DNA of 64,000 nucleotides from a virus. Lineage: Duplodnaviria; Caudoviricetes. Positions within the stretch are counted from its first letter, which is position 1; the number at the start of each line of letters is the position of its first letter. The DNA is taken from positions 64,001-128,000 of the IMG/VR virus record IMGVR_UViG_3300005611_001698; one strand, written 5' to 3'. A program made the translations under genes and the position numbers. The notes beneath the pieces are model-generated. The model ran no database searches. It was not told where the DNA came from and was given only the letters and a program-made list of their open reading frames with translations. Positions 20,828 through 42,899 of this stretch are shown in pieces.

Positions 20828-23316
20828 GAGAAGAATGCCTCCAAGTTTGTAGTTTTTTCAACAGACCAACCAATGGAATCAAGAATGATCTTCAATGGTT
20901 CCAAGAATGCCTTATCAAATTGAAGATCGTAGTCAATATATTTGTTGAGATCCAGTTCTTTTGGCCATTCTTGAATGAATGATAACACATTTTCATGAAT
21001 TGGATTTGGTTTTTTCAAATACAGAAACCTAATCTTTTCCCCGTTCTGAATAAGAGAATACTTGTTGGTGAGTTTTTTCTGTTTTATGTAGTGGTTGAAC
21101 AAAAGTGCTCCGCGACAATGAATCGGAGTTCCCTTATCATAAATTGAGTTGACTGACTTATACTTTTCGACATCAGATACCGAACGAGGAAAAGAAATCT
21201 GCTCTGGATCCATCTTCTTGAAGTCTGATCGGCACCTTTCAATGTATTCAATCACATCATTTTCAGTGCCAGTCATCATGAGTTTGAAGGAATCCTTCAA
21301 CATCTTGCGACAAGGTGCAGGTGTAGAGGACTTAACTGCCTCAATACCCATGACTTTCAGTTTAGGTTCTGCATACTGAACACCCTCACTGTTCCATACG
21401 TTGAGAATGTATCGCTTCTTCGCAGTCCAAATACCACGATCAGCAATGTTCTCACGCTTCATGAACATCTTCTGCTCATATGCCGACATGTAGTCCGCAA
21501 GTTCCTGATAAGACTGTTCGATGAATGGTTCCAACTTGTCTTGACAGATCTGATCAAGTATGGAAACAATCGCTGCTTTGTCGCTAGACTTATTAGCAAA
21601 AAATTTACTAACAAGAGGTCCAAGATTAAGATAGATTGAGTCAGTGTCGGATGCAATGACGTAATCCTCTCCTTCTGTTTTAAGAAGATTATTTAGATAG
21701 TCATTCATCTTGTTCTCAATCCATCGAATTGATGCCTGACCAGAAAGAGTAATAGCTTCTGCATTCTCCAACTTATAATATCGGAAATACTGATTACCAA
21801 TAGCACCATAAGCAGAGTTCAGTTGGATCTTACGTGCCATTTGGATGTTATTACACCGCGCAATCTCCTTTTCAAGTGTCTTGGAGGGTGACTTTTCGTT
21901 CTCTTGCTTAGCAGCAAGCATCTTTTTCTTGTAAATGGTGCGTTCTTTGTAGATTTTATCCATCAGTTCTGGCAAAAATCCACGCACATCTTTGCGATAC
22001 ATTGCACCATTTGCTGCTGTTGCATAACGACCATCTGCCATAAATGTTCCAGACAAGATTTTATCCACAGAACATCTTGGATGAGGTTCATCCACCAGAG
22101 TTTCTGGTGAAATGTTATATTGCATAATTAAATGTGGATATAGACTGTTCAAGTCAAAGGAAACAACCCAATCATAACTACCAGGAATCGGTTCTTTAAC
22201 ATATGCACCAGCATATTTGTCATCCTTTTTGGCACCAACCTTTGGCGGAATAACAATATTTCTCTTTTTAAGATAGTTGTAGATGATTGCATCCCACATT
22301 CTGACCTGATAAAACACGTCGGTGAAGTTTACTTTGGCATCATATGCCATTGTCAGTGCCAACTCAATCAATTTCATCTTGTCTTCCAAACGGTCAACAA
22401 GTTCCACGTCTTTGATGTTGTATTCAACGAACTTTTGCCAGTTACCAGTATAGAAATCTTTGAAAGTGTCAAACTCAGAGTGATCTAGTTTTTGTTGACC
22501 GAGTTCAACCAGTGCAATATGATCCAGACGATAAGATTCTTGGTTGGTATAAGTAAATTTCTTATACAAATCAAGGTAATCTAGCTGGGTAACACCACCA
22601 ATATCCATTGATTTGTTCTTTCTGCCTTGAATAAAGACCTCATGTTCACTTACAAGACCCCATGGCGAAAGACGCTTCATACGTTTTTCGCCAAGAACTT
22701 TTTTAAGGCGTCCAGCAATATATGGGATATCGAATAGTTGGATATTCCAACCAGTGATAACCTCAGGCGGTTCATTTTCCCAATAAGTTATGAACTTATT
22801 AAGAAGATCTACTTCATCCAAGCAACGAATATACTCAACATTCTTTTGTTTAACCACAAAAGGTTTGACACCCCACGTGATAATCTGTTTAGTTGCATAA
22901 TCTTGTATCGTGATTGTGAGCAATTCTTCCTCACAAGTTTGCACATCGGGGAATCCTTGCTCAGCAGTTGTCTCAATATCCAGAGTAATCAACTTGATCT
23001 TTAAAATATCAAAGTCGATGTGCTCATCAGGATAGTTATCCGAAATGTACTGATAAATGTACCTTTCATTACCGTAGATATTGAATCCTTCAACTCCATC
23101 ATACTTTGAAAAAAACTCACGACAGTCTTTTACATAACCAGGGTGAATGGGTTCAACAAGTTTACCATTCAAAGTTTTATATTTCGAATCTTTTTTCTTG
23201 CTGTCAACAAAAAGAGTTGGTTTGTACTCTTCACGGAGAGCAAAATGTTCTCCATTATCATAACCACGGACCAGGAATTGGTTACCGACAAGTTGTACGT
23301 TGGTGTAAAATCTCAT
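20824..23316 (-). CDS. gp43: Family B DNA polymerase gp43
   Basis: DIET exonuclease, SFDLNSLYP, KxxLNSAYG, DTDS. Confidence 0.98.
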   Translation of the reverse strand: MRFYTNVQLVGNQFLVRGYDNGEHFALREEYKPTLFVDSKKKDSKYKTLNGKLVEPIHPGYVKDCREFFSKYDGVEGFNIYGNERYIYQYISDNYPDEHIDFDILKIKLITLDIETTAEQGFPDVQTCEEELLTITIQDYATKQIITWGVKPFVVKQKNVEYIRCLDEVDLLNKFITYWENEPPEVITGWNIQLFDIPYIAGRLKKVLGEKRMKRLSPWGLVSEHEVFIQGRKNKSMDIGGVTQLDYLDLYKKFTYTNQESYRLDHIALVELGQQKLDHSEFDTFKDFYTGNWQKFVEYNIKDVELVDRLEDKMKLIELALTMAYDAKVNFTDVFYQVRMWDAIIYNYLKKRNIVIPPKVGAKKDDKYAGAYVKEPIPGSYDWVVSFDLNSLYPHLIMQYNISPETLVDEPHPRCSVDKILSGTFMADGRYATAANGAMYRKDVRGFLPELMDKIYKERTIYKKKMLAAKQENEKSPSKTLEKEIARCNNIQMARKIQLNSAYGAIGNQYFRYYKLENAEAITLSGQASIRWIENKMNDYLNNLLKTEGEDYVIASDTDSIYLNLGPLVSKFFANKSSDKAAIVSILDQICQDKLEPFIEQSYQELADYMSAYEQKMFMKRENIADRGIWTAKKRYILNVWNSEGVQYAEPKLKVMGIEAVKSSTPAPCRKMLKDSFKLMMTGTENDVIEYIERCRSDFKKMDPEQISFPRSVSDVEKYKSVNSIYDKGTPIHCRGALLFNHYIKQKKLTNKYSLIQNGEKIRFLYLKKPNPIHENVLSFIQEWPKELDLNKYIDYDLQFDKAFLEPLKIILDSIGWSVEKTTNLEAFFS

Positions 23317-23874: not shown

Positions 23875-23927
23875 ATTATACCAAGAAAAAAGAGGGGCGT
23901 CAACTGGTTTGTGCCAGTTGCCCCTCT
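23875..23927 (-). terminator. Rho-independent terminator overlapping a TTGACG-17-TATAAT promoter
   Basis: AGAGGGGCAACTGG/CCAGTTGACGCCCCTCT stem plus T-run; -10 at 23880-23875. Confidence 0.8.
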
Positions 23928-23950
23928 GCGGCGACGATATTCAATACTAT

Positions 23951-24217
23951 TTAGTCTCTAATAATCACTTTAATTTTTGTTTTTGAATTATCAGTATGCT
24001 TAAAGCAAGATTTTAATGGAAGAACCTTGCGTTCAGTATACCATCCCCAATTATCATACTTAGTTACATATTTAATTTTCTTACATCGTCTCCAATCTTT
24101 TCTCACCATAACATCCTTTTCAGGATGATAGTATACAGAACTATTATAATTCCTTGGGTGAGCAAATGCTGGAGACGCAATTAATAATGAAGTTAATCCA
24201 ATAATAAGTTTGTTCAT
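23951..24217 (-). CDS. Small secreted basic protein
   Basis: Signal peptide ending AFA; ATGA-coupled to hsp20. Confidence 0.7.
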   Translation of the reverse strand: MNKLIIGLTSLLIASPAFAHPRNYNSSVYYHPEKDVMVRKDWRRCKKIKYVTKYDNWGWYTERKVLPLKSCFKHTDNSKTKIKVIIRD

Positions 24218-24780: not shown

Positions 24781-26226
24781 ATGACCAGTAGATTTTTGAC
24801 AGATGTTCTTTTTTACTTATCAAGTCTTGAAAATACTGATCTAAAAGACTCTGTAATTGATGAGGTTGATGATTTTGCTACAATTAACAGAGGAGTTATT
24901 CAATTAGAATATATTTCTTCTAAGAAAAAATCTGGCAAACCTGTGATTGCTGATGAAGTAAAAAAATTATTAGTTAAAAAGTATCAAAAAGGTAAGAGAT
25001 TAGTTTTATCTCTAAGAGATGGTGGATTGCGAATAGTCCCAGACGATGTTTACGTATCCTTTAAACAAAAACCAAAGACAGGTAAAAGCAGTAGTAGTGG
25101 GAAAAGTGTCAAAACTGCGATTCAGGAAGAGGGGAGTGCTTTTATTCTGACGCAAGTTTTGAAAAAGAATAAGAAATTTGAAAGTGCAAAAGATATTTTA
25201 AATGACACAGAAACCTTCAAAGGTTTAGAAAAAATATTTGGGTCTGCTTATAAGGATAAAATAAATGCGTGGGTGCATAGTTATTACGAACATCAAAAAG
25301 CATTCTTCAAAAAATTTCAACCATCTCAATGGGATGTTTTTGAACATGGTGGACAAGACTTCATGACTTTCATAAAAGATGAACTAAAAAAAGTTAGTGT
25401 CATGACAGTCCGTGGTAAAGTCCCTGTTGGCAAATATGAAACTTGGAATCCTGCTGATATATGGGCAGTAAAAGATAAAACAACTGTAAAAAATATGATT
25501 GATAAAGCAATAGATGGTGATCATCAAACGTTGACTGAGTTTAATAATGTTCTTTATAAATTAATTAATCAAGAAAAACTTATTGGACTATCACTTAAAA
25601 AAATTGATGACAGGCAAACAGCAAAATTCAAATATGTCAATGTGAGTCCAAAGGATATTGAATTTGCAGACGTGGAACAAATAAAGATGAAGGATATCAA
25701 AATAGAAATAGACACATCCCCATCAAAAGATGGGATGATTCAAGGTGCGTATGTTACTTTTGCTGATTATACGACTTACATCATAAGAACACCTGGGGAT
25801 AAATTTTCTAACCTAAAATATGAAAGTGTAATCAAGGGAAGTGGAGGTAAGGGTGGTGCTGCTCCTGTCAATTTAGTTGAAGATTTGATTCAATCGACAA
25901 CAAGCGAGAAAACTTTTACCAATAAACATCAAGAGTATCCTCAAACTATTGAGGAATTTAATGATGACAAACGTGATTATAAAACGATGTATAATAACTT
26001 GAAAAAATATATTAAAGGAACTAGCACTTATGATCAATTTGAATCTATGATAAAAGAAATGTTTGAATCCAACAGTGCTAAAAGCAGAGCCATAGCACAA
26101 TCAAAATTAATGCAACTTAATTTTTTCAATGATGTATTAAATGCAGAATCTGAATTCTGGACAGATTTGCTCTACATGTCTCTTAAAGTTGGAAAGAGAT
26201 TTGCACCTCACGGAAAACTCGCATAA
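24781..26226 (+). CDS. Uncharacterised nuclease-like protein (putative PD-(D/E)XK variant) inserted against the operon direction
   Basis: QEEGS...WNPADIW...GLSLKK; AT-rich; AATAAATA at 24755-24762; flanked by direct repeats. Confidence 0.6.
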   Translation: MTSRFLTDVLFYLSSLENTDLKDSVIDEVDDFATINRGVIQLEYISSKKKSGKPVIADEVKKLLVKKYQKGKRLVLSLRDGGLRIVPDDVYVSFKQKPKTGKSSSSGKSVKTAIQEEGSAFILTQVLKKNKKFESAKDILNDTETFKGLEKIFGSAYKDKINAWVHSYYEHQKAFFKKFQPSQWDVFEHGGQDFMTFIKDELKKVSVMTVRGKVPVGKYETWNPADIWAVKDKTTVKNMIDKAIDGDHQTLTEFNNVLYKLINQEKLIGLSLKKIDDRQTAKFKYVNVSPKDIEFADVEQIKMKDIKIEIDTSPSKDGMIQGAYVTFADYTTYIIRTPGDKFSNLKYESVIKGSGGKGGAAPVNLVEDLIQSTTSEKTFTNKHQEYPQTIEEFNDDKRDYKTMYNNLKKYIKGTSTYDQFESMIKEMFESNSAKSRAIAQSKLMQLNFFNDVLNAESEFWTDLLYMSLKVGKRFAPHGKLA

Positions 26227-26253
26227 AAAAGGAGGGTGTTGGTAACCCTCCTT
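26221..26253 (-). terminator. Rho-independent terminator after regA; right copy of direct repeat
   Basis: AAGGAGGGT/ACCCTCCTT stem plus T-run on minus strand. Confidence 0.85.
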
Positions 26254-26297
26254 GTAGCGTATATTCCTTTTGTAGCGTGTCGCGCACGAAAGCGACG
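26225..26297 (-). ncRNA. Candidate late small RNA downstream of regA
   Basis: TAAATA at 26306-26301, 5' hairpin, ACGCTACAA twice, terminator, no ORF. Confidence 0.5.
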
Positions 26298-26303
26298 TTC
26301 TAT

Positions 26304-26735
26304 TTAGGACTCTTGTGTCTTCTTTTTACCAATGTTATATTTTGTTTCAAGGGTCCACTCATTCTTTTCTTTGAAAGAGAGAACCTTGATTTGATTCAGA
26401 GGAGCAATCTCAGTGATAGTCTCAGCGTTGACTACCTCAATGAGTCCCCAATCAGAAAGAAGTTGAGTAATACGATTACGACGTTGAACATCATTAGGAG
26501 TAAGATTGGCATGTTTGCCATCCAGAGCAAACAACTCCTTAAAGTGAACGATAAAGTATCTTCCTTGCTTATGAAGAATGTGGCAAGACTGATACAGTTT
26601 CTTTTCTTTGCGTGATGCTACTCCAATACGAGTCAGTGTCTCACGCACTTTGAGAAAGTCATCAGGTTCTCTCAGTCTTACTTCAATCATCTGGTCCTGG
26701 GACCACTGTACCTCAGGTTCTTTCACCGTGCTCAT
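26304..26735 (-). CDS. regA: Translational repressor RegA
   Basis: DDFLKVRETLTRIG...LYQSCHILHKQGRYFIVHFKELF. Confidence 0.97.
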   Translation of the reverse strand: MSTVKEPEVQWSQDQMIEVRLREPDDFLKVRETLTRIGVASRKEKKLYQSCHILHKQGRYFIVHFKELFALDGKHANLTPNDVQRRNRITQLLSDWGLIEVVNAETITEIAPLNQIKVLSFKEKNEWTLETKYNIGKKKTQES

Positions 26736-41177: not shown

Positions 41178-41384
41178 TTATTTTCTATGAAATGCTTCTG
41201 GTTCTGTTTCGTGTATCCAATCTTTGAGGTTTCTTACGTAATCTCTTAATTTTTCTGCCTGTTTTTCGTGGAAGGGATCATTTGTATCAAGATATAATTC
41301 TGTGTGGAGATCTACTCCATCAAGGCAACTCTTTATGATAGGGTTCCACGGTTCCCTAAAAGAGGTATTCCATTCACGTGGCAT
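41178..41384 (-). CDS. Hypothetical protein
   Basis: 68-aa ORF after CTAAATA at 41419-41425. Confidence 0.7.
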   Translation of the reverse strand: MPREWNTSFREPWNPIIKSCLDGVDLHTELYLDTNDPFHEKQAEKLRDYVRNLKDWIHETEPEAFHRK

Positions 41385-41427
41385 ACAAGGTCACGATCAC
41401 CTCATATAAGTAACACATTATTTAGAT

Positions 41428-41453
41428 AAAAAAAGGGACCCTTTCGGGTCCCT
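41428..41453 (-). terminator. Rho-independent terminator after g23
   Basis: AGGGACCC-GAAA-GGGTCCCT followed by T-run. Confidence 0.92.
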
Positions 41454-41472
41454 CGCACTTCCTTCACACAAA
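41428..41472 (-). ncRNA. Candidate late small RNA (or g23 3' UTR element) complementary to the Yfr1 motif
   Basis: TATAAATA at 41483-41476 directly after g23 stop; GTGTGAAGGAAGT; terminator; no ORF. Confidence 0.5.
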
Positions 41473-41483
41473 GGATATTTATA

Positions 41484-42899
41484 TCACATCAAGTTGGTGA
41501 CCTTGACGCGACGATAGTAGCGGTTCTGGTTGGCAAGGAGTCTGCCAAGACCCTGATCAGTGCCCTCAGCAAATGGGTTAGCAACAAGACCGTAACGGGT
41601 CTTAAAGCCAATCTTAGGCTGGAAGTTGTTCTCACCAACGGCACGAACCATTTGGAGAGGAACATATGGACAGTAGAAGATACCAGCGTCATAAGGTGAA
41701 GAACCCTTATAACCTACAACGTAGTACTGGTTAGCAGCAACGTTAGCAGCATATGGGTCAATGTAGACGCGATACTTACCATTGATAGTACCAGCAAAAG
41801 TGTTGCCAGTGTCATCAACGTTCAGGTTAGCGTTCAGGGCAGGGGTGTAATCAAGTACACCAGCCATGGTCAGAGCAGAAGCAACGTCAGCAGAGGTCAT
41901 GATGATGTTGCCCTTTCCTCTACGAGTTCTTTGTGCGATAGCGTTAGCATCGCGCTCGATTTGGAACAGCAGACCTTTGAACTTCTCAACAGACCAACGA
42001 CCGTTGGAGTCAACGTCCAGGTTGAACTCACCAGCGGTAGCGGTGTTGACGGTAGCACCTTGCTCAGCAACCTTATAGATGGTTCTGATGACTTCACGGT
42101 TGATCTCAGCCAGAATCTCAGTGGAGAGGATGTTGGCGAGTTCAGCCTCAGCATTCAGACCATGAATTGCTTTCAGGTCTTGTGCCAGTTCCAGTGAGTA
42201 CTCAGCTTTCAGAGCACGTGACTTAGCAGTAACGGTAACTTTCTCAATCGAGAATGCCATCTCGTTGAAAGCATTGGTGGTAGTACCATCCAGTGCCTCA
42301 GCATCGGCAGTACCCATGCCCTGACCAACGTTATAACCGTCAGTAGCAGCAGTTCCAACAGGGTTGAGAACAGATGGGTTGGTGCCAGTCTGTGAAGTAG
42401 TACCGAAACCAGCAGCTACGTCAGAGAAGTAGCTGGTGTTGTCGAAGCCATGATCCATACCGGAGAATGCGGTATCAGCTTCGTTATAGAATGCCTCAGC
42501 ACCGCTCATTCCAGGAGTACCAGGAGCAGCGTAGCGTGAACGCATTGCGAAGATCAGTCCAGTAGGACCGTTCATTGGTTGAACGCCAGCCAGGTCATAA
42601 GCAACCAGGTTAGGCATTGAGCGTCTGATCAGGGAGATCAGAACAGGGTCGAAACCAGCAACAGGACCAGCAGCAGTGGCATCAGCAGAGAAACCAGCAG
42701 CAGAGGTTGAGGAGTTGGTGTTGACCGTTGGGGTCTCCATCAGGTTCATGCCACTGTTAAAGGCATTTTCCTCACGGAGGAATCTTTCTTGGTTTTCCAG
42801 CAGAACAGCGGTTACAGCTCTACGATGGGAATCTTTGATTCCACCATCATGATCGAGAAGAGGCTTCCACTTTTCTACCAGATGCTCGGATTGGAACAT
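41484..42899 (-). CDS. gp23: Major capsid protein gp23
   Basis: GVQPM.GPTGLIFAMR, KSRALKAEYS.ELAQDLKA.HG, FQPKIGFKTRYG. Confidence 0.99.
   Translation of the reverse strand: MFQSEHLVEKWKPLLDHDGGIKDSHRRAVTAVLLENQERFLREENAFNSGMNLMETPTVNTNSSTSAAGFSADATAAGPVAGFDPVLISLIRRSMPNLVAYDLAGVQPMNGPTGLIFAMRSRYAAPGTPGMSGAEAFYNEADTAFSGMDHGFDNTSYFSDVAAGFGTTSQTGTNPSVLNPVGTAATDGYNVGQGMGTADAEALDGTTTNAFNEMAFSIEKVTVTAKSRALKAEYSLELAQDLKAIHGLNAEAELANILSTEILAEINREVIRTIYKVAEQGATVNTATAGEFNLDVDSNGRWSVEKFKGLLFQIERDANAIAQRTRRGKGNIIMTSADVASALTMAGVLDYTPALNANLNVDDTGNTFAGTINGKYRVYIDPYAANVAANQYYVVGYKGSSPYDAGIFYCPYVPLQMVRAVGENNFQPKIGFKTRYGLVANPFAEGTDQGLGRLLANQNRYYRRVKVTNLM

Follow-up and report, generated by a model that had tools for sequence, protein, structure and literature searches.

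A conserved seed complementary to host tRNA-Val(CAC) in a putative small RNA gene behind g23 of a Synechococcus cyanomyovirus

Base-pairing small RNAs (sRNAs) with a 5′ seed and a Rho-independent terminator are known, as are RNA sponges, including prophage-encoded ones, and the tRNA-spacer sponge 3′ETS-leuZ. T4-type phages are said to carry promoter-stem-loop cassettes, the PeSLs of Arbiol et al. (2010). To our knowledge, no natural bacterial or phage RNA has been shown to target the anticodon arm of a mature tRNA. Yfr2 (Cyano-1, RF01701) is a short RNA of picocyanobacteria with a conserved unpaired 5′ end that binds another abundant small RNA. Yfr2 binds both Yfr1 and Yfr10 via this 5′ motif (PMC6778093, PMC2518516). 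Phages also act on the tRNA pool, and host tRNA loss was reported as a form of resistance (PMC11726456).

In this study, a 64,000-nt stretch of a cyanophage genome (the window) was analyzed, with attention to a short unit directly behind the major capsid gene g23. The unit resembles sRNA sponges in having a promoter, a conserved single-stranded seed, and a terminator hairpin with a U-tail, and in being carried by phages. Like 3′ETS-leuZ, it would in some of them be freed from a tRNA precursor. Unlike the known sRNAs and sponges, its predicted partner is the anticodon arm of a mature tRNA, not an mRNA or sRNA. Its battleground is that of phage tRNA genes, namely the codon/tRNA mismatch between AT-rich cyanophages and GC-rich Synechococcus; the known tRNA-pool cases add tRNAs or use proteins, whereas the phage RNA would subtract a host isoacceptor by antisense. 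The unit is like a PeSL in its compact promoter and hairpin, its varying intergenic sites, and its signs of mobility. It differs in being single-copy per genome and in the 14 invariant nt, matching a host tRNA, that are inserted between promoter and hairpin. The likeness to Yfr2 lies in the seed. The Yfr2 5′ end reads GUGUGAGGAGUG in Synechococcus and GUGUGUAGGAG in MED4; with two A added, this string becomes the phage seed. The phage RNA nevertheless gave no match to the RF01701 covariance model at its threshold of 41 bits, while host loci scored 47–57 bits. It lacks the GGAAACA/CGAAACA loop found in host Cyano-1 copies and is only about 43 nt long. Unlike that of Cyano-1, its seed is a perfect partner for tRNA-Val(CAC) and a poor one for Yfr1.

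The source phage was a 194-kb T4-like Synechococcus cyanomyovirus of the Kyanoviridae, with its window genes on the minus strand. Its nearest relatives were S-8S56, S-CAM9, and S-PRM1 (g23 identity about 80–84%). All features of the locus are on the minus strand. The g23 major capsid protein gene lay at 41484–42899 as a 471-aa ORF (Pfam PF07068 Gp23, E 1.2e-149). Its TGA stop (41486–41484) abutted a perfect T4-type late promoter box, TATAAATA, at 41483–41476. The box was followed by UCCUUU and then by the purine-rich 14-mer GUGUGAAGGAAGUG at 41469–41456, the seed, after which came CG. The hairpin AGGGACCC-GAAA-GGGUCCCU at 41453–41434 had a G+C stem of 8–9 bp and a GAAA loop, and a U7 run at 41434–41428 formed its tail. 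Stem, loop, and U7 run together (41454–41428) made an intrinsic terminator of −18 kcal/mol. A second late box, TCTAAATA, at 41426–41419 stood 34 nt before a 68-aa ORF (41384–41178), followed by gp3-like, uvsY, and uvsW genes, and would serve these downstream genes. The 68-aa ORF had no Pfam match. A linked protein partner was considered and rejected: this neighbour had no significant similarity to Syn9 gp134–137, and the genome was without a clear gp134 homologue.

Seven perfect TATAAATA boxes were found in the window, all on the coding strand (3.0 expected). Six of them sat 21–37 nt upstream of an ORF. The box behind g23 was the only one without an ORF behind it, and it ran into a terminator; no ORF of at least 40 aa started within 90 nt of it. 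On sequence, it has the features of a T4-type late promoter, with TATAAATA lying on the coding strand and correctly spaced from a transcription unit. Transcription would presumably start about 6 nt downstream, at U41470 or G41469, according to T4 late-promoter geometry. The resulting ORF-free unit of about 43 nt would contain the seed, the GAAA hairpin, and the U7 run. Folding of the region was more stable than that of shuffled sequences (z −4.1), and the seed was unpaired in the fold of the short transcript. RNA folding also gave a small hairpin, UCCUUU-GUGU-GAAGGA (41475–41460), with GUGU in the loop; it is possible only in the longer g23 3′UTR isoform, and its upstream arm differs in sequence and register in other phages. 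The seed occurred exactly once in the 194-kb genome. The locus thus has the sequence traits of a base-pairing small RNA, namely its own promoter, a conserved unpaired seed, and an intrinsic terminator. The best explanation of these features is a single-copy small RNA gene of about 43 nt, whose putative product would also form the 3′ end of the g23 mRNA.

A sequence-only reading of the window had described the perfect box against the g23 stop, the short ORF-free unit closed by a GAAA-capped terminator, and a late box belonging to the next gene. These three elements were confirmed. Its proposal of a discrete RNA that also forms the g23 mRNA 3′ end is supported by the arrangement above, in which an orphan late promoter leads through an ORF-free stretch into a terminator. 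The unit also carries a conserved single-stranded stretch fit for antisense pairing with an abundant host RNA. Two more late-type boxes, ACTAAATA and CCTAAATA (23885–23955 and 26225–26308, minus strand), also led into short ORF-free stretches, the first of which visibly closed in a terminator.

The seed was the exact reverse complement of nt 25–38 of host tRNA-Val(CAC). It covered C25 and A26, the CUUCC strand on the 5′ side of the stem, and the complete anticodon loop, UUCACAC. In the window phage, the complementarity reached 17 bp over 41470–41454, including one G-U pair. In an exact 14-mer scan of 185,579 species genomes, about a dozen of the first 80 matches listed were cyanobacterial, and further ones lay beyond these. 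All the cyanobacterial matches listed, bar one in a coding region, lay inside a tRNA-Val(CAC) gene (ARAGORN) on the antisense strand. When 38 host tRNAs were compared, a long anticodon-arm match outside the phage's own tRNA genes was found only for Val(CAC). Two 13-nt matches in the genome, to the anticodon arms of tRNA-Trp and tRNA-Ser(GGA), were rejected as chance matches in coding context. By our arithmetic, the chance of a predefined 14-mer matching any host tRNA was about 2e-5. The expectation of a 14-nt match to some host anticodon arm anywhere in a single 194-kb genome was about 0.4, which is not rare. The case rests on conservation across phages.

The computed pairing favored the same partner. 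The seed-tRNA-Val(CAC) duplex reached −24.8 kcal/mol, and none of 2000 shuffled seeds was as good. The first 18 nt of the window RNA formed 17 bp with the tRNA at −31.7 kcal/mol. In full-length cofolding, the net gain was −17.7 kcal/mol with tRNA-Val(CAC) vs. −12.5 kcal/mol with Yfr1, in an energy model that leaves out tertiary structure and base modification, while the tRNA anticodon stem must melt and its bases may be modified. The locus showed the exact 14-mer at the predicted 5′ end, a G+C hairpin within a few nt, and a single copy, which are the marks used here for an anti-tRNA-Val(CAC) module. An anti-tRNA small RNA directed at host tRNA-Val(CAC) is the best reading of the element, and we put its probability at about even.

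In an alignment of the region behind g23, the 14-mer was invariant in five phages of different genera, although their g23 genes were only about 80% identical. TTTTTTTATCTAAATA of the second late box region was also invariant in these five phages. The terminator stem varied in sequence across phages with its pairing kept. An exact 14-mer scan of IMG/VR gave at least 119 contigs. A hairpin and U-run came next in 57 of 109 unique instances, and in many others the hairpin was followed by tRNA genes. The two bases before the seed were CC in 32/58 terminator-bearing copies, which lets the pairing continue through G39 and G40 of the tRNA. Conservation of the seed across phages does exceed chance. The unit recurs in related cyanophages; its absence there would, for the sequence-only reading, have counted against a sponge.

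The architecture was counted in 106 unique instances with complete flanks. A sigma70-type promoter was present in 43/106, its −10 box ending 5–9 nt (mode 6) before G1, and a TAAATA box lay 4–9 nt upstream in 16/106. The median length to the U-run was 45 nt. From this promoter spacing, the transcript would be tiny and would carry the seed right at its 5′ end, irrespective of promoter class. The order was constant: promoter, antisense-tRNA seed, hairpin. This phage and each of seven other phage genomes having the module carried one copy. A MAFFT/RNAalifold consensus fold of 31 modules retained only 5 pairs, though each sequence folded well alone, because the stems differ in length and register.

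The site of the module varied. It stood behind g23, behind a small gp134-like gene (Syn9, Syn19, and Syn33), or beside phage tRNA genes. Among the 77 nearest g23 loci, only three had the module behind g23, which indicates an optional, mobile, and dispensable unit. A terminator followed g23 in 77/77 of these loci, and a late box lay behind the terminator in 67/77, with the seed present or not. At the left end, the junction CT(C/T)ATGTGATATAAT (CT(C/T) ATG TGA TATAAT) was common to two unrelated upstream genes, g23 (…KNLM*) and the gp134-like gene (…KEVLM*), as seen at 41484–41500 of the window and in loci L105, L127, L136, L199, L356, and L359. The TGA stop supplies the TGn of an extended −10 box at this junction. 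The shared junction suggests that the cassette may have moved by short homology.

T4-type phages are known to shuffle promoter-stem-loop cassettes. The g23 terminator and the promoters could thus belong to a mobile regulatory cassette with no role in trans, with the 14-mer as a captured scrap of a host tRNA gene or as a start-of-transcript or recombination sequence. The differing sites and the terminator and late box kept with or without the seed count for this, and the left junction shared by two genes is expected of a moving cassette. The seed itself behaves otherwise. A neutral scrap would drift, yet the 14 nt stayed fixed while promoter type, spacer, hairpin sequence, and site changed. The orientation was always promoter, seed, and hairpin, and one copy per genome is unlike the multi-copy PeSLs. 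A start-of-transcript signal is unlikely to serve both sigma70-type and late promoters. We consider a cassette without a trans role unlikely; it accounts for the shared frame and the signs of mobility, but not for 14 bases that stay invariant in one orientation while the rest varies freely.

Two further observations concern the neighborhood of the module. In tRNA-rich cyanophage contigs, which also gave wcaG and abiF RNA matches, the order was TTGACA-17-TATACT, seed, a hairpin without U-run, and a tRNA gene directly after (among them L086, L088, L095, L100, L107, L110, L122, L128, and L130). In such contigs, RNase P cleavage would free the seed RNA as a 5′ leader. When the first 40 nt after the g23 stop were compared in loci L005–L084, TCACA was found at a fixed +9 to +13 in 36/77 related loci (29 of them TTCACA), with about 4% expected by chance. 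The tRNA-Val(CAC) anticodon loop reads UUCACA in the sense direction, and UGUGAA of the seed is complementary to it. One locus (L077) had both the seed and a TTCACA downstream of g23, and the two can pair with each other.

The distribution in phages and hosts was then compared. The full module was present in Syn9 (119424–119466), Syn19, Syn33, S-8S56, S-CAM9, SynMITS9220M01, and S-PRM1, and BLAST found further Synechococcus phages with it. It was not found in eight Prochlorococcus myophages (P-HM1, P-HM2, P-SSM2, P-SSM4, P-RSM4, P-SSM7, MED4-213, and P-TIM68). S-PM2 and S-RSM4, which infect Synechococcus, were also without it. One-mismatch seed matches in P-HM1, P-HM2, P-TIM68, and S-RSM4 were rejected, being coding-like and without hairpin or U-run. 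The module occurred in 3/5 arbitrarily chosen Synechococcus phages vs. 0/8 Prochlorococcus phages (Fisher p about 0.035 by our arithmetic, in a small sample); the Synechococcus phages found by similarity all had it. On the host side, the 19-nt anticodon arm of tRNA-Val(CAC) was present, by our tally, in 79/86 Cyanobiaceae genomes of at least 2.0 Mb vs. 2/43 genomes of at most 1.7 Mb. Five 1.7-Mb genomes (27–44% G+C in the fetched loci) had only tRNA-Val(GAC) and tRNA-Val(UAC), and Yfr1 was present in three of them. The phage and host distributions together indicate that the module tracks tRNA-Val(CAC), not Yfr1.

The pairing with tRNA-Val(CAC) could be real and work in the reverse direction or protectively. 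In the first case, the tRNA would bind in cis to the phage RNA, which would act like a T-box sensor or have its g23 3′ end, or a phage tRNA-operon leader, stabilized; in the second, the RNA would shield the tRNA from a host anticodon nuclease or act as a decoy for it. The seed reads GUG followed by A opposite U33, in the manner of T-box specifier loops, which counts for this explanation. In many phages, moreover, tRNA genes have the seed as their 5′ leader, with a hairpin but no U-run behind it, and the outcome of infection of Synechococcus WH5701 by Syn9 is decided by tRNA supply (PMC11726456). A T-box would need more length than the unit has, however, and neither the T-box architecture (stem I, specifier loop, and antiterminator) nor an Rfam T-box match was found. 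It also closes at a strong terminator, so that nothing downstream is left to regulate. For the nuclease version, we know of no tRNA-Val-specific anticodon nuclease in such hosts. We consider a reversed or protective pairing distinctly unlikely.

The partner named by the sequence-only reading was the host sRNA Yfr1. As a Yfr1/Yfr10 sponge and mimic of Yfr2, the RNA would pair with the single-stranded motif ACUCCUCACAC of Yfr1 and lift Yfr1 control of porins and other targets. Host Yfr1 (RF01116) and Cyano-1/Yfr2 (RF01701) were taken from four Synechococcus or Cyanobium genomes. Host Cyano-1 begins with UGUGUGAGGAGUGC, a perfect 12-bp partner of Yfr1, in agreement with the published Yfr2-Yfr1 pairing (PMC2518516, PMC6778093), and the phage seed equals this 5′ end apart from its two inserted A. 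Most Rfam Cyano-1 RNAs retrieved from marine Synechococcus and Cyanobium likewise begin with a perfect complement of the Yfr1 motif. In Yfr1, an abundant RNA, this motif is unpaired, and the Yfr1 cofold was favorable. The earlier count of 11 nt paired to Yfr1 with two bulged A was also arithmetically correct.

The energies point away from Yfr1. The canonical two-A seed reached only −14.8 kcal/mol with Yfr1, where host Cyano-1 reached −23.0 kcal/mol. As 14% of shuffled seeds were as strong, the Yfr1 pairing alone is no more than chance. With CC in front, the two-A seed gave −15.1 kcal/mol with Yfr1 vs. −29.9 kcal/mol with tRNA-Val(CAC). The corresponding values were −18.9 vs. −22.1 kcal/mol for the one-A variant and −22.4 vs. 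−15.4 kcal/mol for the Yfr2-like zero-A seed. The flanking bases, CC upstream and GUG downstream, lengthen the match to the tRNA and not that to Yfr1. The resemblance to a Yfr1 partner has a simple source, as only two U distinguish the Yfr1 motif ACUCCUCACAC from the tRNA stretch ACUUCCUUCACAC. The same two-U difference separates the Yfr1 motif from nt 26–38 of the tRNA, and host Yfr2 against that tRNA computes to −15 to −20 kcal/mol.

The natural variants agree with this. A Yfr1 target would favor fewer bulges, and the opposite was found in IMG/VR, which argues against Yfr1. The two 'bulged' A were kept in at least 57 modules. A terminator stood behind the zero-A seeds, the perfect anti-Yfr1 strings, in 1/102 and 2/61 instances; these matches were dubious, and bulge-free seeds formed no modules in the IMG/VR rows examined. 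It stood behind the one-A seed GUGUGAGGAAGUG in 0/48 instances and behind the one-A seed GUGUGAAGGAGUG in 10/67, of which three were true modules. These three homologous modules (L642, L643, and L655) lay beside phage tRNA-Leu(UAA)/tRNA-Thr(UGU) genes. They pair with Yfr1 better than the canonical seed does, and still prefer tRNA-Val(CAC). A perfect anti-Yfr1 11-mer, present as a single copy in 1.3 Mb of viral loci, was rejected as a chance match in coding sequence. An Rfam scan of the whole window at gathering score returned nothing relevant, and Cyano-1/Yfr families gave no match at 41350–41550 even at E up to 10. The module was also missing from the eight Prochlorococcus phages, though Yfr1 is present in three of five Prochlorococcus-type genomes, none of which has tRNA-Val(CAC). 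Set against a perfect match to tRNA-Val(CAC) over 14–19 nt, a chance-level energy reached through two bulges makes Yfr1 a very unlikely target. The sponge proposal is supported for the unit and its antisense stretch and not for Yfr1 as the partner. When phages show short matches to the Yfr1 motif, tRNA-Val should be considered as the first candidate.

A Shine-Dalgarno-like (SD-like) 5′ stabilizer, in which AAGGAAGUG, one base off the ideal AAGGAGGUG, binds the 16S rRNA 3′ end so that a parked 30S subunit guards the RNA, has precedents in Bacillus and its phages but is hardly credible here. It leaves unexplained the invariant GUGUG, an A where G would pair better, and why Prochlorococcus phages lack the module although the anti-SD of their hosts should be identical; nor would tRNA precursors, or a terminated RNA of 43 nt, gain much from such protection. 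An attP-like relic of integration at a tRNA site was set aside because the phage is lytic and T4-like and the promoter-to-terminator orientation is fixed, and a CRP-type DNA site because its half-site arrangement was wrong.

Codon usage was compared between phage and host. GUG made up 10% of the phage Val codons (6.6 per 1000) and was absent from the 32 Val codons of g23. In four host genomes it made up 36–53% of Val codons (27–30 per 1000). The phage encodes its own tRNA-Val(UAC) just outside the window, and the anticodon arms of phage tRNA-Val(UAC) on related contigs showed no seed match. The phage has eight tRNA genes (Thr-UGU, Leu-UAA, Met, Pro-UGG, Ser-UGA, Val-UAC, Gly-UCC, and Arg-UCU) at 20914–21078 and 62661–64109 of the genome contig, most of which read A- or U-ending codons. 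With few GUG codons and its own tRNA-Val(UAC), the phage would be burdened far less than its host by removal of tRNA-Val(CAC). Host tRNA-Val(UAC) probably reads GUG by wobble, and loss of the CAC isoacceptor need not stop host translation.

From these results, a course of action can be proposed for the anti-tRNA small RNA. The RNA would be transcribed from its own late promoter and accumulate during infection. Its seed would pair with tRNA-Val(CAC), probably first through a 7-nt contact with the anticodon loop and then into the stem. The tRNA could be taken out of translation, either sequestered or marked for cleavage. Translation of GUG-rich host messages would slow, and GUG-poor phage messages, served by phage tRNA-Val(UAC), would be spared. 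The timing need not be uniform, since the promoter is late-type here and sigma70-type in other phages. The full proposal is a natural anti-tRNA RNA of Synechococcus phages that docks on the anticodon loop, disables or destroys the tRNA, and tilts translation to GUG-poor phage genes beside a seed-immune tRNA-Val(UAC). We offer it tentatively, as a possibility somewhat short of probable.

The element is real, conserved, and unusual as judged from its sequence, and its target is strongly suggested by sequence and distribution. In the literature that could be searched, no description of the seed string, of a link between cyanophages and Yfr1, or of a phage anti-tRNA small RNA was found. If the full proposal is true, antisense regulation of a mature tRNA would be seen here for the first time, and phages would have a further, novel way to shut off their hosts. 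We take Syn9, which has the module, to be a phage with genetic tools and mapped transcriptomes. If the RNA binds tRNA-Val(CAC), tRNAs would join the targets of antisense RNA, and 43 nt would be a cheap way to bias translation against a GC-rich host. Such binding would bear on which tRNAs cyanophages carry, on Synechococcus vs. Prochlorococcus host range, and on the recent observation that the outcome of Syn9 infection hinges on tRNA supply (PMC11726456).
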